The position numbers and the translations under genes were made by a program. Under the pieces are notes generated by a model. It had not been told where the DNA came from. It searched no databases and was given only the letters and a program-made list of their open reading frames with translations. This document shows positions 2,168 to 45,422 of a stretch of 64,000 nucleotides of DNA, piece by piece. The DNA comes from Methyloversatilis sp. GTDB taxonomy: Bacteria; Pseudomonadota; Gammaproteobacteria; Burkholderiales; Rhodocyclaceae. The stretch is from contig JAGNYW010000012.1 of assembly GCA_017984755.1 (NCBI GenBank), forward strand, positions 9,942 to 73,941, written 5' to 3'. Each line of letters begins with the position of its first letter. Positions within the stretch are counted from its first letter, which is position 1.

Positions 2168-3724
2168 TTGCACGGATGCACGCCGCAAGTGAAATACATG
2201 CCCATGCTCGACGCCGCCATGCACGCACCCGCTGCACCACGCACGCTGAATGTGCTGCTGATCGAGGATTCCGAAGACGACGCGATGCTGCTGCTGCATC
2301 GCTTCAGGCTGGCCGGCTATCAGGTCTGGGCGCAACGTGTCGAAGACGAACGCTCGCTGCGCGAGGCCCTCGCGTCGCGCACCTGGGACGTGGTGCTGTC
2401 GGACCACAACATGCCGCGCTTTTCGGCAATGGTTGCACTGGCGATCCTGCAGGAACTGGGTCTGGACCTTCCCTTCATCATCGTATCGGGCGTCATCGAG
2501 GAAGACATCGCCGTGTCGGCGATGCGAGCCGGCGCCCACGACTATCTGAGCAAGGGCAAACTCGACCGGCTGATCCCCGCCGTCGAGCGCGAAATGCGCG
2601 AAGCGCGCAATCGCGCGGAACGACACAGCGCGCTCGATGCGGTGCGCGACAGCGAAGCCCGCTTCCGCGCCCTCGCCGCCAACATTCCCGGCATGGTTTT
2701 CCAGCTGCTGCGCCACGACGACGGTGGCTGGCGCTTTCTGTTCGTAAGCGAAGGCTGCCTCGCATTGCTCGGATTCAAGTCCAGCGAACTGGTGGCGCAG
2801 CCGCGCCGCTTCCTCGACATGGTGCTGGCGGAGGACATGCCCGAACTGGAACGAGCGATGCACCTTTCGGCGCATACGCAATCCACCGTGAACTGGGACG
2901 GCCGCATCCGCTTGCCGGACGAGGACATCAAGTGGGTGAACCTGCGTTCGTCGCCGCGCCTGCTCGCTTCGGGCGTACTGATCTGGGAAGGCATCGTCTC
3001 CAACATCACGCAGAGCAAGCTGACCGAGCGCGAACTGCGCCAGTCACGCGGTCAACTGGCAGAACTGTCATCGCACCTGCAGATCGCGAAGGAAGAGGAG
3101 CGGGAACGCATTGCGCGCGACATTCACGACGAACTGGGCGGCCTGCTGGTGGCGCTGAAATTCGAGGTGTCGCTGCTCGCCAACAAGACTGCGGTCGATC
3201 TCACCGCCATCAAGGCACGTTCGCAGAGCATGGGCAAGCTGGTCGATGACGCTATCAGCACGGTCGGGCGGATCGCGCGCGAACTGCGGCCCGGCATCCT
3301 GAAGGAATTCGGACTCGCGCCGGCCGTCGAGAGCCATGCGGAAGACTTTTCTGCGCGCACCGGGCTGAAGTGCGAGTTGTTGTGCATCGATCACGACATC
3401 GACCCGGACGAAGAAACCGCGATCGCACTGTTCCGCGTGTTCCAGGAGGCGCTGACGAATGTATCCAAGCACTCCGGCGCGCACAAGGTCGAAGTCAGGC
3501 TGACCCAGGAGGACGACGACATCGTGCTGGAAATCGGCGACGACGGACGCGGACTGGCGCCGGAAGACCTGAACAAACCCAAGTCGTTCGGCCTGCGCGG
3601 CATACGCGAGCGGGTCGCTCATCTGAATGGCCGATTCGAGGCGAGCAGCCGCGAACACGGCGGTACCCGACTGTTGCTGCGCGTGCCGGCGTGCCGAAGA
3701 ACCGTACTGGAGTTTTCCCGATGA
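2168..3724 (+). CDS. hybrid sensor kinase: N-terminal receiver, PAS, HisKA_3 and HATPase domains
   Basis: The receiver is LNVLLIEDSEDDAMLL...VLSDHNMPRFSA...DYLSKGKL. A PAS-like region follows (FRALAANIPGMVFQL...). The HisKA_3 H-box is RIARDIHDELGGLL, with N/G boxes (FQEALTNVSKH, DDGRGL, GLRGIRERV). The start could be 2168, 2198 or 2219. Confidence 0.85.
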   Translation: MHGCTPQVKYMPMLDAAMHAPAAPRTLNVLLIEDSEDDAMLLLHRFRLAGYQVWAQRVEDERSLREALASRTWDVVLSDHNMPRFSAMVALAILQELGLDLPFIIVSGVIEEDIAVSAMRAGAHDYLSKGKLDRLIPAVEREMREARNRAERHSALDAVRDSEARFRALAANIPGMVFQLLRHDDGGWRFLFVSEGCLALLGFKSSELVAQPRRFLDMVLAEDMPELERAMHLSAHTQSTVNWDGRIRLPDEDIKWVNLRSSPRLLASGVLIWEGIVSNITQSKLTERELRQSRGQLAELSSHLQIAKEEERERIARDIHDELGGLLVALKFEVSLLANKTAVDLTAIKARSQSMGKLVDDAISTVGRIARELRPGILKEFGLAPAVESHAEDFSARTGLKCELLCIDHDIDPDEETAIALFRVFQEALTNVSKHSGAHKVEVRLTQEDDDIVLEIGDDGRGLAPEDLNKPKSFGLRGIRERVAHLNGRFEASSREHGGTRLLLRVPACRRTVLEFSR

Positions 3725-4495: not shown

Positions 4496-6250
4496 ATGTC
4501 AGACGCCATGCAACCGCTCGAAATAGCCCGTGAAGCATTGCGACGCTTAGCCATGCGTCAGCTCCAGCCCACGCCGGAGAATTACCGCTCCCTTTATCAC
4601 GAGATCGCAGGCACCAAGGCCGACGATCTCTTTCCGGAGCGGGCGCTCAAGCTCGTCTGCAGCACACTCCCGCGACTGAATCAGGCCCAGGTGGAATTCG
4701 CCGAACGCCTCGAAACAGCCGTCGCCAGCCGGAGCTGGTCGGCCATCAGCGAATCGCTGGTCGGTCTGCTGCGCGCACAGGCGGCCCCTCAGCGAAAATG
4801 GACGGCTCTGCTCAAGGATCTTTTCAAGCGATTCGAGCGACCGCACGCATCGCTGAGCCATGCACAGAAGCAACAGGTCATTCAGCAACTGCTCGATTCG
4901 TCGAACGGAGAACTGGATGTCCTCTACACCCGCCTGAGCAAGCTAGCCGACACATGGGAATCGATCGAAACGACCGCCAGAACGGCGCACCCCCATCCCG
5001 AAGACGTTGCAGCGTCCGGTCCGCTGGACAACAGTGACGCCGCGCTGCGGGAGCTGTTTGCAAGCACGCTCGAAGGTGTGGTCGGCAGCCTTCTGATCAC
5101 CGCACCCGAATTGCGTGATGAAGCGCATGAACTCGGTCAGCTGCTGCGCGGCGTACGCGACATGAGCGGTGTCGATGATCTGGCTGCCAAGCTGCGCAAT
5201 CTGATCTACCGCCTCAACTGGGTGGTCGACGATCAACTGGAAATACGGTCGGGGCTGCTTTCACTGCTCGACCTCCTGCTCAAGAACATCGGCGAACTGG
5301 TGATCGACGACCGCTGGATGCGCGGTCAGATCGACGCCCTCCGCACTCTGTGCGATCACCCTCTGACCGCACGAGAGCTCGATGAAGTCGAGCGCAGGCT
5401 GCGTGGCGTGATAGAACGGCAGGGCTCGCTGCGCGGCAACATCGATGACGCCAAGCATCAGATCAAGCTGATGCTCGCCGGCTTTGTGGAACAGCTCGGC
5501 AGTTTCAGCGACGCGACCTCCGGTTTCAGCGACCGGATGGAAAACTACGCCAACACCATTGCAGCGGCGGACGATATCGGTGCGCTGCAGAGCGTGATCG
5601 CGGAAGTCATCGCAACCACGCACGACATGCGGGCAACCAGCGATCGCTCACGCGCCGAAGTCGACAACATGCGCGACCGGGTACGCGCGGCGGAAGCAGA
5701 GATCGAACGGCTGCAGATAGAACTCGAGCAGACCAGCGAGAAAATGCGCCACGACCCGCTGACCGGTGCCCTCAACCGGAAAGGTCTTGAAGAATCGTAT
5801 GCCAAGGAAGTATCGCGTGCGGCGCGGCGCGGCTCCAATCTTTGTCTCGCGGTGCTGGACATCGACAACTTCAAGCGCCTCAACGACACGTACGGTCACA
5901 ACACGGGTGACGAGGCGCTGCTGCATCTGGTTGGAACCGTGCGTGACTGCCTGCGGCCCCATGACACCCTGTCGCGCTACGGCGGCGAAGAGTTCGTGAT
6001 CCTGCTGCCCGAAACATCGATCGAGGATTCAGTCATCGTGGTGCAGCGGCTGCAGCGGGAACTGACAAAGCGCTACTTTCTGGCCAACAACGACAAGCTG
6101 CTGATCACATTCAGCGCGGGCGTCACCGTAGTCGGGCATGAAGAGCCGCAAACGCTCGCCATCGAGCGGGCCGATGTGGCCATGTATCAAGCCAAGGCGA
6201 CCGGCAAGAACCGCGTCGTCATTGCACCGGCAGCACAGATGGCCGCCTGA
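4496..6250 (+). CDS. diguanylate cyclase (GGDEF) with a long N-terminal helical/coiled-coil sensor region
   Basis: C-terminal DPLTGALNRKGLEE...LAVLDIDNFKRLNDTYGHNTGDEAL...RPHDTLSRYGGEEF. The GGEEF active site is present, with an RxxD I-site 5 residues upstream. Confidence 0.85.
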   Translation: MSDAMQPLEIAREALRRLAMRQLQPTPENYRSLYHEIAGTKADDLFPERALKLVCSTLPRLNQAQVEFAERLETAVASRSWSAISESLVGLLRAQAAPQRKWTALLKDLFKRFERPHASLSHAQKQQVIQQLLDSSNGELDVLYTRLSKLADTWESIETTARTAHPHPEDVAASGPLDNSDAALRELFASTLEGVVGSLLITAPELRDEAHELGQLLRGVRDMSGVDDLAAKLRNLIYRLNWVVDDQLEIRSGLLSLLDLLLKNIGELVIDDRWMRGQIDALRTLCDHPLTARELDEVERRLRGVIERQGSLRGNIDDAKHQIKLMLAGFVEQLGSFSDATSGFSDRMENYANTIAAADDIGALQSVIAEVIATTHDMRATSDRSRAEVDNMRDRVRAAEAEIERLQIELEQTSEKMRHDPLTGALNRKGLEESYAKEVSRAARRGSNLCLAVLDIDNFKRLNDTYGHNTGDEALLHLVGTVRDCLRPHDTLSRYGGEEFVILLPETSIEDSVIVVQRLQRELTKRYFLANNDKLLITFSAGVTVVGHEEPQTLAIERADVAMYQAKATGKNRVVIAPAAQMAA

Positions 6251-6581: not shown

Positions 6582-6663
6582 TTGAAACATCGGCGACATC
6601 AACGCCGGGCCATGTAGCCCAGAGCGCCGTAACCACACACCACTTCGTGACAGGAGAATCAAA

Positions 6664-10560: not shown

Positions 10561-10860
10561 ATGAACTCCCTGCCCTTGCTAGAAGACATGCATCAGCTTT
10601 CCAGCCACATGGTGGACGCCGCGCGCGCCAATGACTGGGACAGGCTGGTCACGCTTGAACTCGATGTATCCGCGCTGCGTCAACGCATCGCGGACAATGA
10701 CGAACCGGTGGCATCGCCGGCCGAGCGCGCACGCAAGGTCGATCTGATCAGACAGATACTCGCGCATGACGCAGAAGTACGCCGACACGTCGAACCCTGG
10801 ATGGCACAGGTCAAGGTATTCCTGGGCAAGCTGCCGGCAGGCAAGGCGGAGAACGCCTGA
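10561..10860 (+). CDS. fliT: FliT-like flagellar export chaperone
   Basis: 99 aa and helical, with NDWDRLVTLELDVSALRQRI resembling the FliT WD..L core. It sits after fliS. Confidence 0.6.
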   Translation: MNSLPLLEDMHQLSSHMVDAARANDWDRLVTLELDVSALRQRIADNDEPVASPAERARKVDLIRQILAHDAEVRRHVEPWMAQVKVFLGKLPAGKAENA

Positions 10861-10867
10861 GCACGGC

Positions 10868-12040
10868 ATGAATCAACTGCTGCCGGGCATCTCGCAACGT
10901 CTCGCGGAACTGACCCGCAGCGCGGTACAGCTGACCGGCCCGGTCAGCCCGCTCGGCGAGCAATTGCCCGACTTTCAACCGGGCGAGCGGTACACCGCGC
11001 AGATCCTGCAGAATCTTCAGGACGGAAAGGCCCGGGCACAGGTTGCCGGCCAGATGGTCACGCTGCAGCTGCCGCAGGGCGCACGCGAGGGCAGCACGGT
11101 CACGCTCACGCATGTCGGGCGGAGCGCACAGACGCTCATCGCCACCATGGAGCCGGAAAGCCACGATGCGCCGGACAGCCCCGTACAGCTGAGCCAGTCA
11201 GCACGAACCATCGGGGCGCTGCTGGACCAGCCGCAACCCGCACCCGCCAGACTGGTGGCCGGTCAGCCATTGATTGAACCCACGGTGACGAGTGCAGGCG
11301 TTCAGGCGAGCCCGGACACACCCACACCGGTCATCGCGGGCCGGCTCGCCACGGCCATCGGCCAGAGCGGTCTTTTCTACGAATCGCATCAGGCGCAGTG
11401 GGTCAACGGTGAACGCAACATCGAATCCACTGCTGCCGAACCGCAACGCAGCTTCGACCCGGCCCAGGCGGTCAGGATTCGGGCGCCTATACCCGACATG
11501 GCCGGCACGCCGGTACCGGCGAATACGAACACCCGTGGCGAAATCACCGACCCTGCCATCCGGGAACGCATGGAGCTGATCAAGCCCGATGCAGGACCGC
11601 CCGGAGAGCTCCGTCAGCTGGTGCAGAACCAGTTGCTCGGACTGTCACAGCACACGCTGGCGTGGGAAGGCCTGGCCTGGCCGGGTCAGATGATGAAGAT
11701 AGAAATCGACGACCCGCGCGGCGATCCGCGCGAACCGGACAGCGACCGGAGCGACGAGGCGACCGCCGACGTTCCCTGGACGTCACGACTGCGTCTCGTG
11801 CTGCCGGGTCTGGGCGAGGTCGAAACATCGCTTACCCTGTGGCGCGACCACGGCCTCGCAGTGAATTTTTCAAGCGATCCGGAGGCCCGCCTGCACATGG
11901 GTGCCGCATTGATGGAACTCCAGCAGCGGATGACCGATGCCGGTCTGCGGCTCGGGGCGGTCAGCTTCGCCGACACAGTGGCGGAAAGCGCCGAATTGCG
12001 GGCTGCGCATGCAGCAGATGATGGAGCACGAGGCGCATGA
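10868..12040 (+). CDS. FliK-like (hook-length control C-terminal domain) protein, second copy in window
   Basis: The C-terminus RLRLVLPGLGEVETSLTLWRDHGLAVNFSSDPEARLHMGAALMELQQRMTDAGLRLGAVSF follows the Flg_hook/FliK C-domain pattern. The middle of the protein is Pro/Gln-rich. Confidence 0.6.
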   Translation: MNQLLPGISQRLAELTRSAVQLTGPVSPLGEQLPDFQPGERYTAQILQNLQDGKARAQVAGQMVTLQLPQGAREGSTVTLTHVGRSAQTLIATMEPESHDAPDSPVQLSQSARTIGALLDQPQPAPARLVAGQPLIEPTVTSAGVQASPDTPTPVIAGRLATAIGQSGLFYESHQAQWVNGERNIESTAAEPQRSFDPAQAVRIRAPIPDMAGTPVPANTNTRGEITDPAIRERMELIKPDAGPPGELRQLVQNQLLGLSQHTLAWEGLAWPGQMMKIEIDDPRGDPREPDSDRSDEATADVPWTSRLRLVLPGLGEVETSLTLWRDHGLAVNFSSDPEARLHMGAALMELQQRMTDAGLRLGAVSFADTVAESAELRAAHAADDGARGA

Positions 12041-12330
12041 CCGCATCTCCGCGCGCACAGGCGGTCGCCATGGCGTATGGCGCGGGGGACGCGGCCCCGC
12101 GTGTGGTGGCCAAGGGTCGTGGCCTGCTGGCCGACGAAATCATCCGGCGCGCACGCGAAGCCGGCGTGTTCGTTCATGAATCCCGCGAAATGGTTGCGCT
12201 TCTGATGGGCCTGGATCTGGATCAGCGCATCCCGCCGGAGCTCTATGTCGCAGTGGCCGAATTGCTTGCATGGATCTATCGTGTCGAAAGAGGATTCAAT
12301 TGCGCCCCGCCGGATGCAGTCAAACCATGA
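12037..12330 (+). CDS. free-standing FlhB C-terminal (FlhB-CC / FlhX / YlqH-like) domain protein
   Basis: AVAMAYGAGDAAPRVVAKGRGLLADEIIRRAREAGVFVHESREMVALLMGLDLDQRIPPELYVAVAELLAWIY equals the part of FlhB after the NPTH site. There are no TM segments and no NPTH motif. The ATG overlaps the upstream stop (ATGA). Confidence 0.75.
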   Translation: MTASPRAQAVAMAYGAGDAAPRVVAKGRGLLADEIIRRAREAGVFVHESREMVALLMGLDLDQRIPPELYVAVAELLAWIYRVERGFNCAPPDAVKP

Positions 12331-12400
12331 ATCACGTATTCCGAATCACCCGGCTGCTGTCCGTAGCAGCGGAGCCGGTCTTCAGACAGGAAGCACTAAA

Positions 12401-13156
12401 ATGACCGAAGACATCCGCTTCGATCTGGTCGAAGCCGACGACTTTGCACGCTATGTTCTCGATGGTCAGACCGACATCGTCTTCTACCTTCGCGCGATGA
12501 AGGATCGCAAGGCGAACGTGTCGGTCTATGCCGGGCGCGCGAACGAATCCTTCCTGACTGCGCTGCTCGCCATCGACGAACAGCGCGGTGTGGTGGTGTT
12601 CGACGCTCCGCGCGATGAAAAGCTGATGGAACGGTCTGCCAGGTCTGCGCCGCTGGTATTCCTCACTTCGCTCGAGCGGGTGAAGATCCAGTTCATGGTG
12701 CCGCGTTGCACGCTGGTCGAATTCGAGGGCAGCCCGGCGTTCGAAATACCGCTGCCCACACGCATGCTACGTCTGCAGCGACGTGACTACTATCGATTGA
12801 TACTGCCTCCGAATCCGCGACTGCGCTGCCTCATTCCGACCGGCGAAAGCGGCGGGCGCATGGTGGAAGCCACGATCGTGGATATCTCGGGCGGCGGGCT
12901 GGCGGTCGTCGCGCCACCGAGCAGCCTCAGTCTTTCGGTCGATAGCCTGATCGACAACTGTCAGATCACCTTGCCCGAAGTCGGCACGATTTCCGCCACC
13001 CTGCAGGTCCGAAACGTGTTCCGCGTCACCGAGCGCGGAGGCACGGAACTGCGTGCCGGCTGCCAGTTCATCGGTTTGCCGGGCAGTGCCGATGCGCTGA
13101 TACAGCGCTACATCCTGCGCATGGAGAAGGAGCGCGCGGATCCGCAGGACGCGTAG
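12401..13156 (+). CDS. ycgR: flagellar brake protein YcgR (PilZN plus PilZ, c-di-GMP receptor)
   Basis: The N-terminal YcgR domain (ILDGQTDIVFYLRAMKDRKANVSVY) is present. The PilZ motifs are QRRDYYR (RxxxR) and DISGGG (DxSxxG). Confidence 0.8.
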   Translation: MTEDIRFDLVEADDFARYVLDGQTDIVFYLRAMKDRKANVSVYAGRANESFLTALLAIDEQRGVVVFDAPRDEKLMERSARSAPLVFLTSLERVKIQFMVPRCTLVEFEGSPAFEIPLPTRMLRLQRRDYYRLILPPNPRLRCLIPTGESGGRMVEATIVDISGGGLAVVAPPSSLSLSVDSLIDNCQITLPEVGTISATLQVRNVFRVTERGGTELRAGCQFIGLPGSADALIQRYILRMEKERADPQDA

Positions 13157-13331
13157 CCGCTGCTGAATCGTTTCCCCGTTGATGCCGAGCCCCCGGCAAC
13201 GGCGCAGGACGATGCAGAGTGCCCCATGTTTTCGTTGTCGAAGCATCAGGTCAGGCGTTATAAGGTCGGAACCCTGAAGCCGCCTCACACCATGCGACGC
13301 GGCACGGCAACTGTTCGCGGAGGCACGTGGC

Positions 13332-14534
13332 ATGTTGAATGAAATTCAGTCGCTGCTGCCGCATGGTTACTGCTTTTCCTGGCAGAAGGATCTCTTGTCG
13401 CTGCACGCGGTGGCCAACATCCTCATCGCGGTCGCCTACTTCACGATTCCAGTCACCCTGTGGACCTTCGTGCGCCGCCGCGCGGATCTGCGCTTCAGCG
13501 GCATCTTCGTGATGTTCGGTCTGTTCATCATGGCCTGCGGCGTGACGCACGTGATGGACGTATGGACGCTCTGGTATCCGGATTTCTGGCTCGACGGCTG
13601 GTTGCGCCTCCTTACCGCCGTGGTGTCCATCGCCACCGCGGTCGTGCTCTGGCGCCTCGTGCCGGTCGCGCTGACACTGCCCAGTCCGGACGCGCTGAAA
13701 CAGGCGAATGAAGAACTGCGTGCTGAAATCGCGCGACGCCAGGCCTACGAAGATGAACTGCGCGCCGTGAATGAGCGGATGAAGCGCCAGATCGATGAAC
13801 TCGAATCGCTCTCGTACGCCATCTCGCACGACGTACGCGGACCACTTCGCCACATCGAAGGCTTCGCCCGCGTGCTGGCCGACAACTATCCGCCGCCTGA
13901 AGGGCATCCGGCACATCGGTACATCGATCGGATTCGCTCATCGGTACGCCATCTGAGCAATATCGTCGAAGGCCTGCTTGCCTTTTCCCGTGCCAGCCGG
14001 AGCGAAATGCATTTTGAGTGCTGCGACACCGGTCGCCTGGTTGCCGAGGTAATGGAAGAACTCGCTCCGGATATGGAAAACCGCCTCATCGATTTGCGGG
14101 TAGGCACGCTGCCCGACATTCAGGCGGATCCGAAGCTCATGTACCAAGTGTTCTACAACGTGATCGCGAACGCCGTGAAATACACGCGCGACCGGAATCC
14201 GGCCGTGATCGAAATCGACTGCATCGAAGAGAACGCGACCCGCGCAGTCATCCGCGTGCGGGACAACGGCGCCGGTTTCGACATGCAGTACGCCGGAAAA
14301 CTTTTCGGCGTATTCCAGCGCCTGCATCACACCGACGAATTCGAAGGTACAGGCATCGGTCTTGCAAACGTACGCCGCATCGTCGAGCGCCATGGCGGCA
14401 AGGTGTGGGCAGACGGAGCGGTCGGAACCGGCGCGAGCTTCTTCCTCTCATTAGGCCGCCACACATCGGCAGTGATGGAAAATACGCAGACGACACATAA
14501 CAACGGAGCGAGCGATGTCCCTGCACTTGCGTGA
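13332..14534 (+). CDS. membrane histidine kinase with an ETR1-like (ethylene-binding-type) three-helix N-terminal domain
   Basis: Residues 20-111 form three TM helices that align to the ETR1 ethylene-binding domain (IAVAYFTIP...FIMACGVTH...LLTAVVSIATAVVL). A coiled coil follows, then the HisKA H-box SYAISHDVRGPLRHI and the HATPase N/G boxes (NAVKYT, DNGAGFD, GTGIGLA). GGAGG lies 10 nt upstream. Confidence 0.85.
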   Translation: MLNEIQSLLPHGYCFSWQKDLLSLHAVANILIAVAYFTIPVTLWTFVRRRADLRFSGIFVMFGLFIMACGVTHVMDVWTLWYPDFWLDGWLRLLTAVVSIATAVVLWRLVPVALTLPSPDALKQANEELRAEIARRQAYEDELRAVNERMKRQIDELESLSYAISHDVRGPLRHIEGFARVLADNYPPPEGHPAHRYIDRIRSSVRHLSNIVEGLLAFSRASRSEMHFECCDTGRLVAEVMEELAPDMENRLIDLRVGTLPDIQADPKLMYQVFYNVIANAVKYTRDRNPAVIEIDCIEENATRAVIRVRDNGAGFDMQYAGKLFGVFQRLHHTDEFEGTGIGLANVRRIVERHGGKVWADGAVGTGASFFLSLGRHTSAVMENTQTTHNNGASDVPALA

Positions 14535-14958
14535 CATTCTGGTTGTCGACGACAACGAGAACGATGTCGAACTGATGCTGCTCAGCCTGAGCGGCATCAA
14601 GCTTGCCAACACGATCACGGTGGTACGCGACGGCGTCGAGGGGCTGGACTACCTTTACCGACGCGGCCGCTTCGCGGATCGCCTCGGCGACCCCCCGTTA
14701 TTCATGCTGCTCGACCTCAACATGCCACGCATGGGCGGCATCGAAATGCTGATGGAAATGCGCCGCGACGACAGTCTGCGGACACTGCCGGTCGTCATCA
14801 TGACCTCGTCGCGCGAGGATCCCGACCTGCGACGTTGTTACGACCTGGGTATCAATGCGTACGTGGTCAAACCGGTCGATTTCGACCAGTTTTCACGTAC
14901 CGTCGCCAACCTGGGGGTCTTCTGGGCGCTGATCAACGAGCCGCCGCCCAGGGTTTGA
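14515..14958 (+). CDS. single-domain (CheY/Rcp1-like) response regulator
   Basis: ILVVDDNENDVELM...FMLLDLNMPRMGG...VVIMTSSREDPD...INAYVVKPVDFDQF. It has no output domain and overlaps the kinase 3' end by 20 nt. Confidence 0.85.
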   Translation: MSLHLRDILVVDDNENDVELMLLSLSGIKLANTITVVRDGVEGLDYLYRRGRFADRLGDPPLFMLLDLNMPRMGGIEMLMEMRRDDSLRTLPVVIMTSSREDPDLRRCYDLGINAYVVKPVDFDQFSRTVANLGVFWALINEPPPRV

Positions 14959-15097
14959 CCCGACACCCGCCCGCTTTTTTTCCTCGAAGTTCGGCAGCAC
15001 CTGCATCCGGTTCTGGCTCTGTCGAGTAGACACCGGTACGAAGCGCTCTCGACGCGTGCGCTCGTCCGTTTCCAACCGTCTACAGCAGAGGTCAGAC

Positions 15098-15982
15098 ATG
15101 TATTCGAAATTCCTCATTGCAGCCGCCTCGACCGCAGCCATGGCACACACCCCCGCCATCGCCGCGGATTTCGTCGGTCTGACAACCGGCAACCAGGTCG
15201 GTACTTTCAGCAGCGACAACACGGTTGAGGCAAGCTTCATGAGCATCAGCGGGCTCGGCACCGGTGAGCGGATGCTCGGCATCGATCTGCGTCCGAGTGA
15301 CAACATGATCTATGGCGTGAGCAGCCTGAACCGCATCTACACCCTGAATGCAGGCACCGGTCAGGCAAGCTTCGTGTCCGTGCTGGACACCCCGGTGGTT
15401 AATGCAGCGCTGTCCTACGGCATCGACTTCAATCCGGTAGCTGACTTCGCTGGCGCGGCTTCGCTGCGCTATGTCAGCAGCACCGGCAACAACTACGCGA
15501 TCAACGCAGATACCGGAGCCGTCGGCAACGCAGCCAGCTCGATTGGCGCGGGATTCAGCGGAATCGCCTATACCGGGTCGGATGCTGCGCAGACCAGCCG
15601 CCCGGCCTCGACCTCGCTGTATTACATCAACACGATGACGGACACGCTGCAGATCGCGCCATCCGCCTTCAATGCACCGACCATCACCACTGTCGGATCG
15701 CTTGGCATTTCCGGCAATGTTATCGGTGCCAACGGCTTCGACATCGATGCCTTCGGCATGGGGTGGGCCGCGCTGACGCTCGACAACGGCGACAGCGGCC
15801 TCTACCGGATCGATCTCGCGACCGGTCTGGCAACATTCGGCGGCGCGTTGAATGCCAACCTGCGAGGATTCACCGCTGCGCCTTTCATGGCGCCCGTCCC
15901 CGAACCGGAAACCTGGGGCATGCTGCTCGCCGGCATCGGCCTGCTCGGGGTGATCGCGCGCCGCCGGCCTGGTCAGGGCTGA
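15098..15982 (+). CDS. secreted DUF4394-like protein with a PEP-CTERM sorting signal
   Basis: Signal peptide MYSKFLIAAASTAAMAHTPAIA. MLGIDLRPSDNMIYGVSSLNRIYTLN is a DUF4394-type repeat. The C-terminus VPEPETWGMLLAGIGLLGVIARRR is PEP-CTERM. Confidence 0.7.
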   Translation: MYSKFLIAAASTAAMAHTPAIAADFVGLTTGNQVGTFSSDNTVEASFMSISGLGTGERMLGIDLRPSDNMIYGVSSLNRIYTLNAGTGQASFVSVLDTPVVNAALSYGIDFNPVADFAGAASLRYVSSTGNNYAINADTGAVGNAASSIGAGFSGIAYTGSDAAQTSRPASTSLYYINTMTDTLQIAPSAFNAPTITTVGSLGISGNVIGANGFDIDAFGMGWAALTLDNGDSGLYRIDLATGLATFGGALNANLRGFTAAPFMAPVPEPETWGMLLAGIGLLGVIARRRPGQG

Positions 15983-16095
15983 CGCATCCCAGGCGCCGCC
16001 GCGCCGGCCCTGTCCCGTCATGGCGTTGACTTCCGACAATAAGCATCTTGGAAGAAGCTGCGAGGCTCGCATTTCGTCATGCGGAGAACCTCGCC

Positions 16096-16425
16096 ATGAA
16101 TCAGCCGTCACGCCTCATCTCGATCGCACTCGCACTCGCAATCATCAATCCGGCGCAGCCCGCAGCGGCCAACCCGCAACTGGCCGAAGACAAACAGTGC
16201 CTGAAGTGTCACCAGATGGACAAGGACACGATCGGTCCATCCATGCGCGCCATCGCCGACCGTTACGCCAGCAGACCGGAAGCTTTCGACATGCTGGTCA
16301 GTCGCGTGAAGACCGGCGGCTGGGGACACTGGGGCGACACGATGATGCCGCCACGCACCGAGTACATCAAACCCAGCGACGATGAAGCAGCCGAACTGGT
16401 GCGCTGGATACTCCGGCAGCGTTAG
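16096..16425 (+). CDS. periplasmic monohaem cytochrome c (c551/c552-like)
   Basis: Signal peptide MNQPSRLISIALALAIINPAQPAAA, haem motif CLKCH, and distal ligand region GDTMMPP. Confidence 0.75.
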   Translation: MNQPSRLISIALALAIINPAQPAAANPQLAEDKQCLKCHQMDKDTIGPSMRAIADRYASRPEAFDMLVSRVKTGGWGHWGDTMMPPRTEYIKPSDDEAAELVRWILRQR

Positions 16426-16458
16426 CGCCTGCTGGTCTCGTTTAAGCCGGGCAAGCCG

Positions 16459-16749
16459 CTATGAGCCAACGAGCGGTATCGCACGCTGCGACGAAACGAA
16501 AATGAGCGCATCGGACAGGGCGACGACATCGTGTTCCTCACCGGATTCGGTGAACAGATAATCGCCCTCGCCCAGCTCCACACCTCCGACGCGCCCCCTC
16601 CCCGCGAGCACGAGTACGTCTTCGCCGCCTTCGTGTGCGTGGCGGGGAAAGCGAGCATCGGCATTCAGACGGACAAGCGATGTGCGCCCACCCGCGTCGT
16701 TGCTGCGGAAAAGGCTGCGTTCGATGCCGGCGTGACCGTTCACCTGCAT
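16459..16749 (-). CDS. small cupin-domain protein
   Basis: 96 aa. FPRHAHEGGEDVLVLAGRGRVGGVELGEGDYLFTESGEEH fits the cupin motifs. It lies directly downstream of the MBL gene on the same strand. Confidence 0.6.
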   Translation of the reverse strand: MQVNGHAGIERSLFRSNDAGGRTSLVRLNADARFPRHAHEGGEDVLVLAGRGRVGGVELGEGDYLFTESGEEHDVVALSDALIFVSSQRAIPLVGS

Positions 16750-16816
16750 CCATATCTCCTGTCACGGTTGCATCGGAACCATCCGGCTACGCCATGGGAA
16801 TGGTCCGCAGACGCCT

Positions 16817-18172
16817 TCAGTCCAGCGTGAACTCTTCGTCCTGTTCCGGTACGACGGCCGACCAGCCAAGATCATGCTCGAGCTTCTGGCGCAGGCTGTC
16901 GGAGGCGACCGGTTCGCCGTGGGTGACGAAAACGCGGCGCGGTGCGCGTTCGACCGGACGCAGCCAGTCGAGGATTTCACGGTAGTCGGCGTGCGCGGAC
17001 AAACCGTCGATCTGTGCGACCTCGCAGCTGATCTGCGCATCGCGCCCGAAGATGCGCAGGCTGCGCGACCCCTTGAGCAGCGCGTCACCCCGCGTGCCTT
17101 CAGCCTGATAGCCGGTGATCACGATGGTGCTTCGCGCGTCGGCGCCGAAGGCCAGCAGATGATGCAGGATGCGTCCGCCATTGAGCATGCCGGCACCGGC
17201 GATGATCACCTTCGGATAGCGGTTGGACGCCAGCGCTTCCGAATCTTCCGGCGAGCGCGTGCAGGTCACAGCGTCCCGGATGCGGTCGCAGGCATCCTGG
17301 GTCAGGCGGTGCTCGTGCCGGTACTTGCGGAACACACCGGTGACGTCGATGGCCATCGGGCTGTCGAGAAATACCGGGAGATCCGGAATGCGGTGTTCGT
17401 CCATCAGGCGCGACAGCAAATACATCAGGGTCTGCGCGCGCCCAACGGCAAAGGCCGGCAGCAGCACCGTACCGCCCCGCGCAGCCGTACGGCTGACGAT
17501 GTCGGCGAGTGTTTCGTAGGGGTCGTGCTCCGCATGCAGGCGGTCGCCGTAAGTCGATTCCACGACCAGCCAGTCGGTCGCGGCGAGCGCGTCGGGTGCC
17601 GTCATGACCGGGTCGTCCGGACGTCCGACGTCACCGCTGAAAGTGATGCTGCGCCCGCCGCATTCGACCCTGACGCTGGCGGCTCCGAGGATGTGGCCGG
17701 CCCGGAAAAAAGTCACACGAAAGGGACCGATGGTCACCGGCTGGCCGAAATCGGCGCTGCGGAAGTGCTTCATCGCCTGGTCCGCATCCTCGGACGTATA
17801 GAGCGGTTCGGCCGGGTGGTGCTTGCTGTAACCGTAACGGTTGGCATGCCGTGCGTCTTCTTCCTGCAGATGCGCACTGTCTTCCAGCAGGATGTCGACC
17901 AGTTCGCGACTGGCCGACGTGGTCCACACCGGGCCGCTGAATCCCTCCCGCATCAGGCGCGGCAGGTAGCCAGAATGATCGAGATGGGCGTGCGTGAGCA
18001 CAACGGCAGAGATATCGGCTGCATCGACCGGAAACGGCTTCCAGTTGCGGCTGCGAATGTTCTTCACGCCCTGGAACAGACCGCAATCCACGAGCAGTCG
18101 CTGACCGCCGTGGGTCAGCAGGTAGCGCGAGCCGGTCACCGTGCCTGCAGCGCCGAGAAATCGTATTTTCAT
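16817..18172 (-). CDS. MBL-fold / beta-CASP metallo-hydrolase (RNA-specificity domain family)
   Basis: MKIRFLGAAGTVTGSRYLL...VLTHAHLDHSGYLPRL (HxHxDH), then beta-CASP and a C-terminal domain. The start is set at MKIRF; the ORF track extends 19 codons further. Confidence 0.8.
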   Translation of the reverse strand: MKIRFLGAAGTVTGSRYLLTHGGQRLLVDCGLFQGVKNIRSRNWKPFPVDAADISAVVLTHAHLDHSGYLPRLMREGFSGPVWTTSASRELVDILLEDSAHLQEEDARHANRYGYSKHHPAEPLYTSEDADQAMKHFRSADFGQPVTIGPFRVTFFRAGHILGAASVRVECGGRSITFSGDVGRPDDPVMTAPDALAATDWLVVESTYGDRLHAEHDPYETLADIVSRTAARGGTVLLPAFAVGRAQTLMYLLSRLMDEHRIPDLPVFLDSPMAIDVTGVFRKYRHEHRLTQDACDRIRDAVTCTRSPEDSEALASNRYPKVIIAGAGMLNGGRILHHLLAFGADARSTIVITGYQAEGTRGDALLKGSRSLRIFGRDAQISCEVAQIDGLSAHADYREILDWLRPVERAPRRVFVTHGEPVASDSLRQKLEHDLGWSAVVPEQDEEFTLD

Positions 18173-18225
18173 GACCGCATCCTCCTGTCTGCGAGTGTAC
18201 CCGCATGCCGGAAGCCATCGTGCCG

Positions 18226-18252
18226 ACAAAAAAAACCGGCCAACGGCCGGTT
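18226..18252 (-). terminator. rho-independent terminator after fliE
   Basis: On the minus strand, AACCGGCC-GTT-GGCCGGTT is followed by TTTTTT. Confidence 0.65.
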
Positions 18253-18280: not shown

Positions 18281-18598
18281 CTACACACCCATGTTCATGA
18301 TGTCCTGATAGGCATTGACCAGCTTGTTGCGCACCTGAACCATCTGCTGGAACGAGAGGCTGGCCTTCTGCGAGGCGATCATCACGTCCTGCAGATTGGC
18401 TTCGGAACTGCCGGTGATGAAACCTTCCGACATCTGCTTGGCCTGCGCCTGCGCGGCATTTACCTGCTCGATCGCATTCTTCAGCGCATCGCTGAAATCG
18501 GCACCCGAACCTTCGCCCGATTGCGCCGACGGCTTGCTGGCAGCGACCTGCGCCGTGGAGCGCAGCTCGGTGATCATCTGGTTGAGACTGGTGTTCAT
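18281..18598 (-). CDS. fliE: flagellar hook-basal body complex protein
   Basis: MNTSLNQMITEL...FSDALKNAIEQVNAAQAQAKQMSEGF...LQDVMIASQKASLSFQQMVQVRNKLVNAYQDIMNM is canonical FliE. GGAGGAAG lies upstream of the ATG. Confidence 0.9.
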   Translation of the reverse strand: MNTSLNQMITELRSTAQVAASKPSAQSGEGSGADFSDALKNAIEQVNAAQAQAKQMSEGFITGSSEANLQDVMIASQKASLSFQQMVQVRNKLVNAYQDIMNMGV

Positions 18599-18682
18599 GT
18601 TTCTTCCTCCATTGCCGGAACGGCAATAAATGCCGCCCGCTGGCCGCCGCAACGGCGGTTGTCACCCGGTTACCGAATACCC

Positions 18683-18717: not shown

Positions 18718-20133
18718 TCAACCTTCGCGCAGCAATCCATCTGCCTTGTAGCGTGCAAGTTTATATCGCAACGTGCGTTCGGAAATGCCCAGCTTTTCGA
18801 TCGCCTTCTTGCGCGACCCGCCGACCGCGGCCAGTGTTTCCAGTATCAGGTCGCGCTCCATGTCGCGCACTGATCTCACTCGCAGGGGCGCGTCCGGCAA
18901 GGCGTTGGGCGGCGCGTCGTTGGCTGCCGCCGATGGCATTGCCACCTCGGGAGTGGATGCTGCCGGCGCCGTTTCCACCACCTGACGCAGCGGCGAACGC
19001 TGACCACCCAGCACGATGTGGTCGGCTTCGACCTGATCGTCGGGCGCCAGAATGGCCGCACGCTGCATGGTGTTTTCCAGCTCGCGCACATTGCCGGGCC
19101 AATCGTGGGCGGCAAGTATTGCCGCCGCCGAGTCGCCGAGGCGCAGCATGCGGCCCTGTGCCCTGGCGCAGGCGGCAAGGAAGTGACGCGCGAGCGGCAC
19201 GATGTCGCCCGGGCGGTCGCGCAGCGACGGAATGCCGATCGGGAACACGTTCAGCCGGTAATACAGATCTTCCCGGAAGCGCCCGGCCCGGGCTTCGGCT
19301 TCCATGTCGCGGTTGCTGGTGGCGAGGACGCGGATATCCAGCGGAATCGGCTTCTTGCCGCCAACCCTTTCCACCTCGCGTTCCTGCAGCACGCGCAGCA
19401 TCTTGGCCTGCAGCGCAAGCGGCATTTCCGAGATTTCGTCCAGCAGCAGCGTACCGCCGTCGGCCTGTTCGAACTTGCCTGCCTGCGCCGTCGCGGCCCC
19501 GGTGAATGCGCCCTTTTCGTAGCCGAACAGCGTCGCTTCGAGCAGATTGTCCGGAATCGCCGCGCAGTTGATGGCGATGAAGGGCTTGCCGGCACGCGCC
19601 GACTGTTGATGAATGTAGCGGGCGAAGACTTCCTTGCCTGTACCCGATTCGCCGGTCAGCAGCACGGTTGCTTCCGATCGCGCCACACGCGCCGCCAGCC
19701 CGAGTACCTGCCGGGTCCGCGTATCCTCGGCGATCATGTCGGTCGGTGTGACCACCGGCACGGCATAGCGCTCGATATGGGCAAGCAGCACGTCCGGTTC
19801 GAACGGTTTGAGCAGGAAGTCGCACGCGCCGGCGCGCATCGCGGCCACCGCCTTTTCGACATCGCCGAAGGCAGTCATCAGCAGCACCGGCAGAGCGGCC
19901 TCGCGGGCGCGTATTTCGCGCAGCAGGGTCAAGCCGTCCATCGGCTGCATGCGCAGATCGGTAATGACCAGATTGAGCGCGTGGTCGCCGGTGTTCCGTT
20001 CGATCATGCGCAGCGCCTGCGGACCGTCTGCCGCGCCGATCACGCGATGGCCGGCGCATTCGATGGCCAGACACAGCGCATCGCGCAGATTCGGTTCGTC
20101 CTCGACCACCAGGATGTTCAGCTTGTCGCTCAT
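18718..20133 (-). CDS. fleR: sigma-54-dependent flagellar response regulator (FleR/FlrC type)
   Basis: The REC domain (ILVVEDEPNLRDAL...VITDLRMQPMDG) is followed by an AAA+ domain (GESGTGKEVFARYIH, GAFTGA, ESELFGYEKGAFTGA-like region). The C-terminal Fis-type HTH is AIEKLGISERTLRYKL. Confidence 0.85.
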   Translation of the reverse strand: MSDKLNILVVEDEPNLRDALCLAIECAGHRVIGAADGPQALRMIERNTGDHALNLVITDLRMQPMDGLTLLREIRAREAALPVLLMTAFGDVEKAVAAMRAGACDFLLKPFEPDVLLAHIERYAVPVVTPTDMIAEDTRTRQVLGLAARVARSEATVLLTGESGTGKEVFARYIHQQSARAGKPFIAINCAAIPDNLLEATLFGYEKGAFTGAATAQAGKFEQADGGTLLLDEISEMPLALQAKMLRVLQEREVERVGGKKPIPLDIRVLATSNRDMEAEARAGRFREDLYYRLNVFPIGIPSLRDRPGDIVPLARHFLAACARAQGRMLRLGDSAAAILAAHDWPGNVRELENTMQRAAILAPDDQVEADHIVLGGQRSPLRQVVETAPAASTPEVAMPSAAANDAPPNALPDAPLRVRSVRDMERDLILETLAAVGGSRKKAIEKLGISERTLRYKLARYKADGLLREG

Positions 20134-21353
20134 TGGACGTTCTCCAGCACTTCGTCAGATAGGCTGCCTTCTGCCTGCACCGGCAGCCGCAGCGTAAACA
20201 GGCTGCCCACGCCCGGCGTGGACCCGCATTCGATGTCGCCGCCGTGCACCCGAGCCACCCCGCGCGCGATCGCCAGCCCCAGCCCCGTTCCTTCATCACG
20301 CGTGGTGAAGAAGGGTTCGAACAGTCGTTCCTGTATGTCCAGCGGGATGCCGCGTCCGTTGTCGTGCACCGTGAAGCACAGGCTGCCGGCACCCGGCACC
20401 ACTGCAAGGACAACTGCGCCACCATCGGCACAGGCCTGTACGGCGTTCTCCAGCAGGCTGACCAGCGCGCTGGCGATCGCCTTGCGATCACCCGACACGG
20501 TGGCATCCACCGGTGCGGGCTCCACCACGAGGTCGACACCCGCCTGACGCGCCACCGGTTCCACCGTGTGGCGCAGCTCTTCCACCAGCGCCGCGATGTC
20601 GATCGCTTCGCGGCCGAGCACTTCGCCACGCGCAAACATCAGCGTGTCGCGGATCAGGCGTTCGAGATGGCGCAGCCTGTCCTGCGCGCGCGAGGCGATC
20701 GAGCGAATGTCGGCCGACGGCAGTTCGCGCGTGATCAGCGTGCCGACGTAAAGCGTCGCGGCAGCCAGCGGCGTGCGTAGCTGATGTGCCAGCGAAGCCG
20801 CCATCTCACCCATGGCCGCCAGACGTTCGTTCCGTGCAGCCGCAATCTTCAGTGCATGCTGGCGCGTCATGTCGTGCAGCAGCACGATGCGCGCGTTTTC
20901 GCCGGTCAGTGAAGCCTCGCTCACCGACAGCCGGCGCCGCGCGCCGTCGCTGCCGACGCACTCCCACTCGGCCGGTGCGTCGGCAGGCTGCAGGCTGGCG
21001 ACGCAGTCCGCCCAGGTCTGTCCGGCACACGCGCCCACCATGTCGAAGGCTGCCGGATTGGCCTGTTCGATGGCGCCTTCGCCATCGACCACCACCACGC
21101 CGGCGGGCAATTGATTGAGCAGCGTGGACAGCCGGTCGGTGAGCCGTGCCTTCTGTTCGTACTGGCGTCGCAACTCACCGTTTGCCGCAGCCAGCTCTTC
21201 GGTGAGGCTGGCGACCTGACGCTCCAGCGTTCCATACGCTTCCGACAGTTCGGCCGACGCGGCATTGAACAGGCGGAATGCTTCGGCCAGCCGCGCAGCC
21301 TCTTCCGGAGCGATGCGTGCGGTATCAGCAGTGGATGCGAGCGGTTCGGACAT
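20130..21353 (-). CDS. fleS: cytoplasmic PAS histidine kinase (FleS/FlrB type)
   Basis: No TM segments. Contains a PAS region (LPAGVVVVDGEGAIEQANPAA), the H-box MAASLAHQLRTPLAA and HATPase boxes. The stop overlaps the fleR start. The start is set at MSEPLAS because the sigma-54 promoter overlaps the longer ORF. Confidence 0.8.
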   Translation of the reverse strand: MSEPLASTADTARIAPEEAARLAEAFRLFNAASAELSEAYGTLERQVASLTEELAAANGELRRQYEQKARLTDRLSTLLNQLPAGVVVVDGEGAIEQANPAAFDMVGACAGQTWADCVASLQPADAPAEWECVGSDGARRRLSVSEASLTGENARIVLLHDMTRQHALKIAAARNERLAAMGEMAASLAHQLRTPLAAATLYVGTLITRELPSADIRSIASRAQDRLRHLERLIRDTLMFARGEVLGREAIDIAALVEELRHTVEPVARQAGVDLVVEPAPVDATVSGDRKAIASALVSLLENAVQACADGGAVVLAVVPGAGSLCFTVHDNGRGIPLDIQERLFEPFFTTRDEGTGLGLAIARGVARVHGGDIECGSTPGVGSLFTLRLPVQAEGSLSDEVLENVQ

Positions 21354-21411
21354 GCCTTGGGTGCCTTGTTCGCGCTGTTTACGTGCAGGGATTGATCGAT
21401 CGTGAAAGCGT

Positions 21412-21427
21412 AGCAAGCGTCAAGCCA
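21412..21427 (-). promoter_or_regulatory. candidate sigma-54 promoter of fleSR
   Basis: Minus strand TGGCTTG-ACGC-TTGCT. GG and GC are at the exact consensus spacing, about 60 nt upstream of the ATG at 21353. Confidence 0.55.
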
Positions 21428-21568
21428 TGCACTTGACGGGATCAGCCGGCCAAAACACCGCTTTATCCGCGGAACGGCTCGCGCGAGGCGCGCCGACAAT
21501 CCGTCCCATTCCGCAAGGTGGGTCGGTGCGCGGCTCCCTTCACTTCAGTCACCTGTACGAGACGAATC

Positions 21569-27224: not shown

Positions 27225-28250
27225 ATGCCGGACATCACGCTCAACCTGCCGTCGTCAGCCACTCCGCTGGCTTCCGGAAGCCCCGTCGGCGAAATCCGCA
27301 GCATCGGTGCCGAAGCATCGACCGAAGACGCAGCCACAGCGTTTGCCGCGCTGCTTCAGAACACCATCAAGGAACTGCCGGAAAATCCGCAGGCTGCCCT
27401 GCTGGCCACTCTGATGGCGGAGGAGACGGCCCTTGCCGAGCCGGAAACCGAGCCTGAGGCGCTTGTCGCCGACCCGGCGCAGCTCGCCGGTGATCTGCTC
27501 GCAAGCAGCCTGATGCTGCCACTCGCGCTGCGGATCGCGCCCCCTCCCGACGACAGACCGCTGCAGGTCGAAGGTGACGATGCAGCACCAGAGCTGAATG
27601 GGCTCGGCGACGCAACGGGCCGGCAGCGCGAAAGCGGCAACGCCGGCGAATCGGACCTGCCGGCGGCAGCGATTGCCGCACAGGCCGTTACGGCGGAGGA
27701 GCGCGAAGGGAAAAATCTGCCGGAGTCGTCCCTCATCGCCGAGACCCGGACCGAGCCCCCCGGCCCGCAGGCAGCGCAGATGCAGCACGCCGACTTCCGC
27801 ACGCATCTCACGGCCGCACAGCGACCGGCCACCGAAATGACGGTCGCCACGCCGATCAGCAATCCGGGCTGGGCTGATGACGTCGGACACCAGATCTCCT
27901 GGCTGGCCGGACAGGGCACCAGCAACGCCGAACTCGTGCTGACGCCACCGCACCTCGGGCGCATCGAAATTTCGATCCAGATCGGCGCCGACCTGAGTAC
28001 CGCGCAGTTCGTATCCGCCAGCCCTCAGGTACGCGAGGCACTTGAACAGGCGATGCCGCGGCTGCGCGAAATGCTGGCGGAAAGCGGTATTTCTCTCGGC
28101 CAGGCCAATGTGAGCAGCGATCAGCCGTCCGGGGAACGCGGTCAGGGTAGCGAGCGCCACGGTCGCGGCCGCGATGCGTCAGGCGAAACGGACGGGGTCA
28201 TCCTTCCTCCGGTCAGGCGCGGCATGGGCCTGGTTGACCTGTTCGCGTGA
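27225..28250 (+). CDS. fliK: flagellar hook-length control protein
   Basis: Pro/Ala/Glu-rich middle region. The C-terminal domain is AELVLTPPHLGRIEISIQIGADLSTAQFVSASPQVREALEQAMPRLREMLAESGISLGQANVS. GGAGG lies upstream. Confidence 0.8.
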   Translation: MPDITLNLPSSATPLASGSPVGEIRSIGAEASTEDAATAFAALLQNTIKELPENPQAALLATLMAEETALAEPETEPEALVADPAQLAGDLLASSLMLPLALRIAPPPDDRPLQVEGDDAAPELNGLGDATGRQRESGNAGESDLPAAAIAAQAVTAEEREGKNLPESSLIAETRTEPPGPQAAQMQHADFRTHLTAAQRPATEMTVATPISNPGWADDVGHQISWLAGQGTSNAELVLTPPHLGRIEISIQIGADLSTAQFVSASPQVREALEQAMPRLREMLAESGISLGQANVSSDQPSGERGQGSERHGRGRDASGETDGVILPPVRRGMGLVDLFA

Positions 28251-37576: not shown

Positions 37577-37653
37577 TGGTCGGGGCGGCGGGATTCGAAC
37601 TCGCGACCCCTTGCACCCCATGCAAGTGCGCTACCAGGCTGCGCCACGCCCCG
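37577..37653 (-). tRNA. tRNA-Pro (anticodon GGG)
   Basis: 77-nt cloverleaf. Acceptor CGGGGCG/CGCCCCG, D-stem GCGC/GCGC, anticodon stem CTTGC/GCAAG with loop ATGGGGT, T-loop TTCGAAT, and an encoded CCA. The T-stem GCGAG/CCCGC has one A:C mismatch (52:62). Confidence 0.85.
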
Positions 37654-45345: not shown

Positions 45346-45422
45346 TGGTAGGCGCGATTGGACTCGAACCAACGACCCCCACCATGTCAAGGTGGTGCTC
45401 TAACCAGCTGAGCTACGCGCCT
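45346..45422 (-). tRNA. tRNA-Val (anticodon GAC)
   Basis: 77-nt cloverleaf. Acceptor AGGCGCG/CGCGCCT, D-stem GCTC/GAGC, anticodon stem CCACC/GGTGG with loop TTGACAT, T-arm GTTGG-TTCGAGT-CCAAT, and an encoded CCA. Confidence 0.9.

Follow-up and report, generated by a model that had tools for sequence, protein, structure and literature searches.

An ETR1-type sensor kinase and its response regulator in the flagellar gene region of a Methyloversatilis genome

The kinase and regulator gene pair

We analysed 64,000 nucleotides (nt) of the genome of a Methyloversatilis sp. (assembly GCA_017984755.1, contig JAGNYW010000012.1, positions 9,942 to 73,941 of the forward strand), referred to below as the window and numbered from its first nucleotide. 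Our subject is a pair of plus-strand genes in which an initial annotation, made from the sequence by itself, had recognized an ethylene-binding domain (EBD) of the plant ETR1 type fused to a histidine kinase. The kinase gene (13332–14534) opens with an ATG that is preceded 9–13 nt upstream by a GGAGG ribosome-binding site, and it encodes 400 residues followed by a stop codon, arranged as EBD, signalling helix, HisKA and HATPase_c. The regulator gene (14515–14958, plus strand) encodes 147 residues of the bacteriophytochrome/Rcp type, in which Pfam recognizes Response_reg only. The 3′ end of the kinase gene and the 5′ end of the regulator gene overlap by 20 nt (14515–14534), an arrangement that suggests translational coupling. 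The open reading frames, their coordinates and the overlap are all as first described. An identical kinase protein is present on 10 metagenome contigs, with the same neighbours.

Pfam places HisKA at kinase residues 160–221 and HATPase_c at residues 266–374 (14127–14453), and neither a GAF nor a PAS domain was found in the kinase by this search. An AlphaFold2 monomer model, calculated with 37 homologues (mean predicted local distance difference test score, pLDDT, 76.9), breaks at a conserved L-P-S-P motif at the junction of the third membrane helix and the signalling helix (residues 116–119), after which a single unbroken helix of residues 119–185 (13686–13994) joins helix 3 to HisKA and reaches the kinase. 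The direct connection without an intervening GAF domain, as originally proposed, is thus borne out by both methods, and it sets the protein apart from the plant ETR1 architecture, where a GAF domain follows the membrane domain. The phospho-acceptor is His166 (codon 13827–13829) in HisKA, and the nucleotide-binding boxes of HATPase_c are intact (N276 and N280 in the N box; D311, G313 and G315 in G1; G339, G341 and G343 in G2). The active-site set of the regulator is likewise complete (D12, D13, D67, T97, Y116 and K119, with the phospho-acceptor D67 encoded at 14713–14715), and the receiver ends in a C-terminal arm, FWALINEPPP. Both proteins are predicted to be competent. EBD, catalytically complete kinase and adjacent cognate regulator together give the locus the make-up of a bacterial ethylene-receptor two-component system.

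The sensor domain and its relatives

Residues 21–116 of the kinase (13392–13679) correspond to the Pfam family ETR1_N (PF25487), entitled 'Ethylene receptor 1-like, N-terminal domain'. The match covers profile positions 2–97 of 97 with an E-value of 3.3e-37 and 127.1 bits against a cut-off of 27, so that the profile comparison by which the initial annotation proposed to check its assignment comes out far above threshold. Three transmembrane helices were modelled at residues 19–49, 56–81 and 85–114 (block-mean pLDDT ∼ 73–92) and coincide with three hydropathy peaks. Helices 1 and 2 are joined by a basic loop, RRRADLR, which would fit an N-out, kinase-in topology by the positive-inside rule.

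For pairwise comparison two plant orthologues of Arabidopsis ETR1 were used, a Brassicaceae protein (P0121, source name 'ethylene receptor') and Petunia Q8W2M6. They came from a search seeded with the AtETR1 N-terminus, whose matches were at most 97% identical to the seed. P0121 itself reaches this 97% and differs at one position from the 49-residue ETR1 string on which the initial annotation relied. BLASTP of residues 1–125 against P0121 gave 37 identities in 110 positions (34%) and an E-value of 4e-17. The 22 identities in 49 positions counted by hand between residues 32–80 and ETR1 28–76 were reproduced, both with the quoted string and with P0121, and helix 3 aligns with 10 identities in 13. 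The alignment is not gap-free, contrary to the original claim: a gap of two residues precedes helix 1, and the loop that joins helices 2 and 3 is three residues shorter in the window protein. The offset of +4 to ETR1 numbering, said to be uniform, consequently holds for helices 1 and 2 (N29 = D25, C69 = C65, H73 = H69) and becomes +1 in helix 3 (R92 = K91).

Hydrophobic helices can resemble one another by chance, in which case the N-terminus would be a mere membrane anchor. The modest 34% identity to plant ETR1 and the biased composition of transmembrane segments are what such an explanation can call on, but it is refuted by the profile match across the whole model (E 3e-37), by the pairwise E-values of 4e-17 to the plant protein and 7e-40 to the Azospirillum receptor AzoEtr1, and by the strict invariance of C69, H73, Y36, P40, T95, S99 and T102 in hundreds of homologues. 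We regard its probability as negligible.

The candidate Cu(I) site is Cys69-x3-His73 in helix 2 (13536–13550), whose codons lie exactly where they had been placed (Cys69 TGC, 13536–13538; His73 CAC, 13548–13550). Both residues align to ETR1 C65 and H69 and are invariant in 120 of 120 close homologues and 148 of 148 wider representatives. Y32, I35, P36 and I62 of AtETR1 reportedly belong, too, to the seven residues that the receptor requires for ethylene binding. Published work confirms that there are seven such residues and names D25, C65 and H69 among them. Six of the seven are kept in the window protein, as Y36, I39, P40, I66, C69 and H73, and these six are invariant also in the 148 wider representatives; within the 120 closest homologues the invariant set comprises Y36, I39, P40, I66, C69, G70, H73, T95, A96 and S99, save for gaps at Y36, I39 and P40 in one truncated fragment. 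The seventh position, ETR1 D25, is occupied by Asn29 (codon AAC, 13416–13418). Alignment to the ETR1 orthologues thus upholds the original assignment of all seven positions. The helix-3 partner of Asp25, Lys91 in ETR1, is represented by another basic residue, Arg92 (13605–13607).

Asn is the minority form at position 29. The 120 closest homologues have Asp in 106 cases and Asn in 13, and the 148 wider representatives have Asp in 144 and Asn in 4, the latter close to the 3.67% Asn published for 1,221 sequences (Azhar et al., 2023). In a neighbour-joining tree the Asn forms fall into one clade, made up of the window protein and relatives at 69% identity or more, and this clade is sister to a Methyloversatilis clade that carries Asp. 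Two Asp members (P0012 and P0014) are nested inside the Asn clade, which points to repeated changes at position 29. Of the 120 closest homologues, 79 have Lys at position 92 and 41 have Arg; throughout the clade of the window protein (homologues P0001–P0015) the residue there is Arg and never Lys, in Asn and Asp members alike.

A second conserved element, PHGYCFSW (residues 10–17, 13359–13382), precedes helix 1, is not part of the Pfam model and is predicted to be periplasmic. Its P10, H11, G12, C14 and W17 vary little or not at all in the 148 wider representatives and the 120 closest homologues. The motif, PHG-x-C-[FY]-x-W, occurs in AzoEtr1 as LPHGVCLFW and is absent from the aligned plant receptors, which have a Cys4/Cys6 pair instead. 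On the periplasmic side it could join two subunits by a disulfide or serve in copper loading.

Among characterized proteins, AzoEtr1 (525 residues, as published; sequence taken from the Azospirillum brasilense Sp7 megaplasmid) invites the closest comparison. The sensor domains are 47% identical (67/142, E 7e-40) and align without gaps across the domain. Beyond the PHGxC motif, the two proteins share the C-x3-H site, the LPS junction, a histidine-kinase output and a proteobacterial host, and in Azospirillum, too, a stand-alone receiver gene (AzoRR-etr1) lies directly downstream and overlaps the kinase stop codon (PMC11819568). AzoEtr1 differs in the PAS domain that separates its sensor from its kinase and in its non-flagellar neighbours (PMC11819568), in Asp and Lys where the window protein has Asn29 and Arg92, and in a kinase core only 23% identical to ours; its 135-residue regulator is of another receiver type (34% identity over 64 residues) and lacks the C-terminal arm. 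In the PLSDB gene table the AzoEtr1 locus (L094, A. brasilense Sp7 plasmid p1, record positions 783482–783847) is blank, yet the 525- and 135-residue reading frames are intact there; a characterized receptor is therefore invisible in that annotation.

Plant ETR1 shares the three-helix domain with the equivalents of Y32, I35, P36, I62, C65 and H69. Apart from the Asp25-to-Asn and Lys91-to-Arg exchanges, the shorter helix 2–3 loop and the PHGxC motif in place of Cys4/Cys6, the window protein differs from it in having no GAF domain and no fused receiver, and plant receptors signal mainly via CTR1 rather than by phosphotransfer. SynEtr1 (slr1212 of Synechocystis PCC 6803), cited as a precedent in the initial annotation, likewise has an EBD on a kinase, uses phosphotransfer and affects motility and biofilm. 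It differs in its light-sensing domain, in signalling to slr1213, a regulator, and to a small RNA, and in that its motility is pilus-based phototaxis, not flagellar swimming. Characterized bacterial receptors of this kind already exist in SynEtr1 and in AzoEtr1, the latter with the same layout of kinase and overlapping regulator.

The family is large. A search with the sensor domain alone returned 8,290 representatives of 50%-identity clusters at E ≤ 1e-3 and 5,938 at E ≤ 1e-10, in proteins of 160 to 1,477 residues, and among proteins of plasmid records the domain turned up in Azospirillum, cyanobacteria, Novosphingobium, Rhizobium and others. The nearest matches from named organisms belong to Methyloversatilis species (66–68% identity). 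It had been expected that automated annotation would label such a protein as a generic sensor histidine kinase. The source names of the 120 best full-length matches are indeed generic ('sensor histidine kinase', 'ATP-binding protein') or of the form 'light-regulated ... bacteriophytochrome', but all 120 carry the PF25487 call. When a genome collection was scanned with the full-length alignment, 78 of 80 loci matched over residues ∼ 120–376 only and are generic kinases of the same transmitter type; the sensor domain was included in two, L007 (Massilia) and L019 (a Steroidobacteraceae metagenome-assembled genome). The scan patterns had fallen in the kinase catalytic core, and the scan is unfit for neighbourhood statistics. 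The kinship of this bacterial gene pair with the plant ethylene receptor is genuine, and the pair belongs to a large, catalogued and partly characterized family; it is not a new type of system.

Output module and flagellar surroundings

Searches of solved structures point to bacteriophytochromes for the output half. For the kinase core the top match is the bacteriophytochrome RpBphP2 (kinase domain, 8f71, E 4e-41), followed by other bacteriophytochromes, and a fold comparison (Foldseek against the PDB) gave 35% identity to the RpBphP2 kinase. No ethylene-binding-domain structure was found among solved structures by sequence search, and Foldseek against the PDB matched the kinase half only. The regulator had been called CheY-like, a label that does not fit: it matches RtBRR (5ic5, E 3e-45) and AtBRR (5brj, E 1e-43) over the full length, including the C-terminal FW arm, and then RcpA, RcpB and Rcp1 (entries including 1k68, 1k66 and 1i3c), whereas CheY of the E. 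coli type reaches only ∼ 1e-8 to 1e-9. It is not a chemotaxis CheY by these comparisons, and there are no che genes among the called genes of the neighbourhood. Kinase core and regulator thus both have phytochrome partners as their nearest relatives. The photosensory PAS-GAF-PHY core of those proteins is missing from the Pfam assignments, and a membrane EBD takes its place; the name 'bacteriophytochrome' given by JGI to homologues reflects the kinase half alone. The sequences are best summed up as a phytochrome-type transmitter and regulator whose input is an ethylene-binding domain.

The pair was first reported to lie inside a flagellar locus, and in the window this is so. It directly follows ycgR (12401–13156, plus strand), which encodes a PilZN–PilZ protein, the cyclic di-GMP (c-di-GMP) flagellar brake, and ends 175 nt upstream of the kinase. 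Ahead of ycgR stands a FliK-like (Flg_hook) gene (10766–12040), which overlaps by 4 nt a gene for a 97-residue protein with the C-terminal domain of FlhB only (12037–12330; Bac_export_2 profile positions 258–335); this FliK-like and FlhB-like gene pair precedes ycgR in all related loci, and a second FliK-like copy lies at 27225–28250. Further upstream, a gene for a 584-residue GGDEF diguanylate cyclase (4496–6250) is placed directly before fliC, also in L087, L088 and L091, and is followed by fliC, flaG, fliD, fliS and fliT, an order read in part from two contigs with an identical kinase (L002 and L003). Components of c-di-GMP signalling, the GGDEF gene and ycgR, are accordingly found at both ends of the late flagellar operon.

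Downstream of the regulator come a gene for a DUF4394 protein with a PEP-CTERM sorting signal (15098–15982, plus strand), then cytochrome c and cupin genes (the cupin on the minus strand), and a gene for an RNase of the beta-CASP metallo-beta-lactamase fold (16817–18229, minus strand), which is the sole non-flagellar neighbour kept in all four loci with flagellar context. The flagellar genes resume on the minus strand with fliE (18281–18652), a fleR-like sigma-54 activator gene (18718–20133) and a fleS-like PAS-HisKA kinase gene (20130–21416), from which fliF diverges at 21518. In the window, L087, L088 and L091 the stretch between regulator and fliE holds DUF4394/PEP-CTERM, cytochrome c, ChrR-like cupin and bestrophin-like or hypothetical genes in differing combinations and orders. 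Elsewhere the window carries ordinary chromosomal genes (sigma factor, pheS, thrS, rpsA, aroA and gyrA). Upstream of the flagellar region, next to tRNA-Thr, lies a gene for a 518-residue receiver-PAS-HisKA_3-HATPase_c hybrid protein (2168–3724). The tRNA genes are Thr(tgt) at 1980–2055, Pro(ggg) at 37577–37653 and Val(gac) at 45346–45422, all on the minus strand, and no further Rfam family exceeded its threshold in the window.

The flagellar position is retained in L087 (73% kinase identity), L091 (68%) and L088 (66%, Methyloversatilis discipulorum), where the non-flagellar genes are partly shuffled, so that the pair directly follows ycgR on the same strand in four taxa at 66–100% kinase identity. 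Four more distant loci, L092, L089, L093 and L090, also have the kinase followed by a regulator, of 147–150 residues, 73–52% identity to the window regulator and the same C-terminal arm. The 20-nt overlap recurs in L087, L091, L088, L092, L089 and L093 and is not present in L090. Regulators diverge in step with their kinases (87, 83, 77, 73, 59, 52 and 52% identity in the seven further loci).

Transcription signals were sought around the pair. No sigma-70-like sites were found in 12000–16600, where 1.3 would be expected by chance, and terminator prediction gave no candidate in the interval from ycgR to the kinase or behind the regulator. Read-through from ycgR into the kinase gene would be possible on this sequence. 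A run of seven Ts (14974–14980), with GC-rich sequence before it, begins 16 nt past the regulator stop codon; the terminator scan recognized no stem there. A weak sigma-54-like candidate, CGGCACG-N4-CTGT (13300–13315), was rejected because its -12 element lacks GC and it ends 16 nt before the ATG. Upstream of fliC, GCCGTAAC (6626–6633, 31–38 nt before the start codon) recurs in L087, L088 and L091 and is probably where a FliA (sigma-28) promoter of the Methyloversatilis-like lineage has its -10 element.

Proposed mechanism and its meaning

We propose that the pair is a two-component system with a copper-dependent ethylene-binding input of the ETR1/SynEtr1/AzoEtr1 family, whose output may act on the decision to swim or to stick; we put the probability of this reading at roughly 60%. 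Ethylene or small-alkene sensing is likely, and control of motility is plausible. The steps that involve the Cu(I) site, the kinase core and the phosphotransfer partner are drawn from the sequence, and the others are modelled on characterized relatives. In this proposal the three membrane helices of a kinase dimer would hold Cu(I) at Cys69 and His73 of helix 2, with Asn29 of helix 1 beside the site and paired with Arg92 of helix 3. The copper would bind ethylene or a similar small unsaturated gas, and the signal would pass from helix 3 through the LPSP junction into the long signalling helix, which is predicted to feed the catalytically complete HisKA/HATPase core with its phospho-acceptor His166. 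Phosphate would then be exchanged between the kinase and Asp67 of the translationally coupled regulator. Ligand-free kinase is probably active, and ligand would inhibit it, as in the inverse-agonist model for ETR1, SynEtr1 and AzoEtr1; published work describes such behaviour and a kinase-to-regulator route in SynEtr1 and proposes them for AzoEtr1. The regulator carries no DNA-binding domain and belongs to the bacteriophytochrome-regulator class, whose members act through dimer changes and protein contacts, so its output is probably a protein–protein interaction. In the Methyloversatilis-like lineage the target may most likely be the swim-or-stick decision, through flagellar function or c-di-GMP signalling, a suggestion that derives from position. 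It leans on the adjoining ycgR, on the GGDEF gene upstream of fliC and on the finding that ethylene lowers c-di-GMP in Azospirillum.

Several observations weigh against this reading, and those on the side of the input centre on Asn29. ETR1 D25N bound copper only minimally in vitro, its binding of 14C-ethylene in yeast was below detection, and by analogy a receptor with Asn29 may bind ethylene poorly or favour another ligand. ETR1 K91R retained binding yet disturbed signalling in planta, a concern that is tempered by the frequency of Arg at position 92 in bacterial homologues (41/120). Methyloversatilis species are not known plant associates, and a source of ethylene is not obvious for them. 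The domain, homologous to the EBD, might instead report another Cu(I) ligand (other alkenes or alkynes, CO or isocyanides) or the availability or redox state of copper in the membrane or periplasm. ETR1 also binds unsaturated ligands other than ethylene, the PHGxC motif is invariant on the periplasmic side of bacterial members and absent from the aligned plant sequences, and the ∼ 8,300 representatives are spread over many bacteria that are not plant-associated. We nevertheless consider a different ligand quite improbable: SynEtr1 and AzoEtr1, the two bacterial members tested, both bind ethylene and respond to ∼ 1 ppb, AzoEtr1 does so with the same PHGxC motif, six of the seven binding residues are invariant, and Asp occurs in sister sequences of the same clade. 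The 14C-ethylene binding of AzoEtr1, moreover, is saturable and resides in its residues 1–130 (PMC11819568).

On the side of the output, the position in the flagellar locus is confined to one lineage (kinase identity of at least 66%), and this part of the original claim has to be narrowed. The pair has no flagellar neighbours at L092 (62%), at L089 and L093 (52% each) or at L090 (47%); the conserved unit is a two-gene module, and the flagellar address belongs to one betaproteobacterial lineage. Even in the window, the interval from regulator to fliE (15098–18229) is filled with variable and unrelated genes, from DUF4394/PEP-CTERM to the beta-CASP RNase. No flagellar-type promoter was found upstream of the kinase, where the sigma-28-like GCCGTAAC is absent; the upstream region is not conserved in the relative at 73% identity, and no conserved upstream motif was detected. 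In Azospirillum, deletion of AzoEtr1 left aerotaxis and swimming unchanged.

All of this would suit a system that senses ethylene and has a non-flagellar output, the pair having settled between two flagellar operons at a variable site of insertion. It would then control surface properties, biofilm or metabolism in the manner of AzoEtr1 and SynEtr1, possibly together with the adjacent DUF4394/PEP-CTERM protein. AzoEtr1 governs biofilm formation and root colonization (PMC11819568), and it also affects carbon and nitrogen metabolism. The place after ycgR is, however, kept on the same strand in four taxa whose kinases have diverged to 66%, a regulator without a DNA-binding domain cannot directly switch on a neighbouring gene, and the DUF4394 gene is missing in L091. 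We judge a non-flagellar output to be somewhat unlikely and prefer the swim-or-stick reading. AzoEtr1 was located at a cell pole, which its authors took to be the site of the polar flagellum (PMC11819568).

The residue at position 29 also bears on how such a receptor might work. Asp25 of ETR1 aids copper binding and confers a very high affinity for ethylene; the D25N receptor has an affinity ∼ 100-fold lower and still signals in planta, and natural Asn variants have been proposed to suit fast responses of the chemotaxis type (Azhar et al., 2023). On this analogy, Asn29 predicts ligand binding that is weaker and exchanges faster than in plant receptors. A more specific proposal, which we offer tentatively and hold to be unlikely as it stands, is that Asn29 marks a low-affinity, fast sensor of ethylene or small alkenes that was recruited to the flagellar regulon of freshwater or sludge Methyloversatilis-like betaproteobacteria and acts through the regulator on the motor, YcgR or c-di-GMP. 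If it were true, these bacteria would swim under the guidance of ethylene or switch rapidly between swimming and sticking, and the system would connect an ethylene receptor with flagellar motility for the first time and would directly support the idea of fast-responding Asn variants (Azhar et al., 2023). Our literature searches returned no paper linking Methyloversatilis with ethylene receptors and, in a broader search on ethylene receptors, chemotaxis and flagella, none that reports the gene of such a receptor within a flagellar cluster.

Only SynEtr1 and AzoEtr1 have been studied among bacterial ethylene receptors, against thousands of bacterial protein clusters that contain the sensor domain. 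The locus described here is a minimal system, consisting of a sensor domain, one helix, a kinase and one small regulator. Its value as a test case lies in a natural Asn at the residue that sets affinity, with Asp-bearing sisters in the same clade; in an output module derived from bacteriophytochromes, whose downstream partners are poorly known; and in a conserved position in the flagellar cluster beside ycgR, in bacteria not known as partners of plants. It could help to show what role ethylene plays for free-living bacteria, and whether Asn forms of the receptor are tuned for fast responses.

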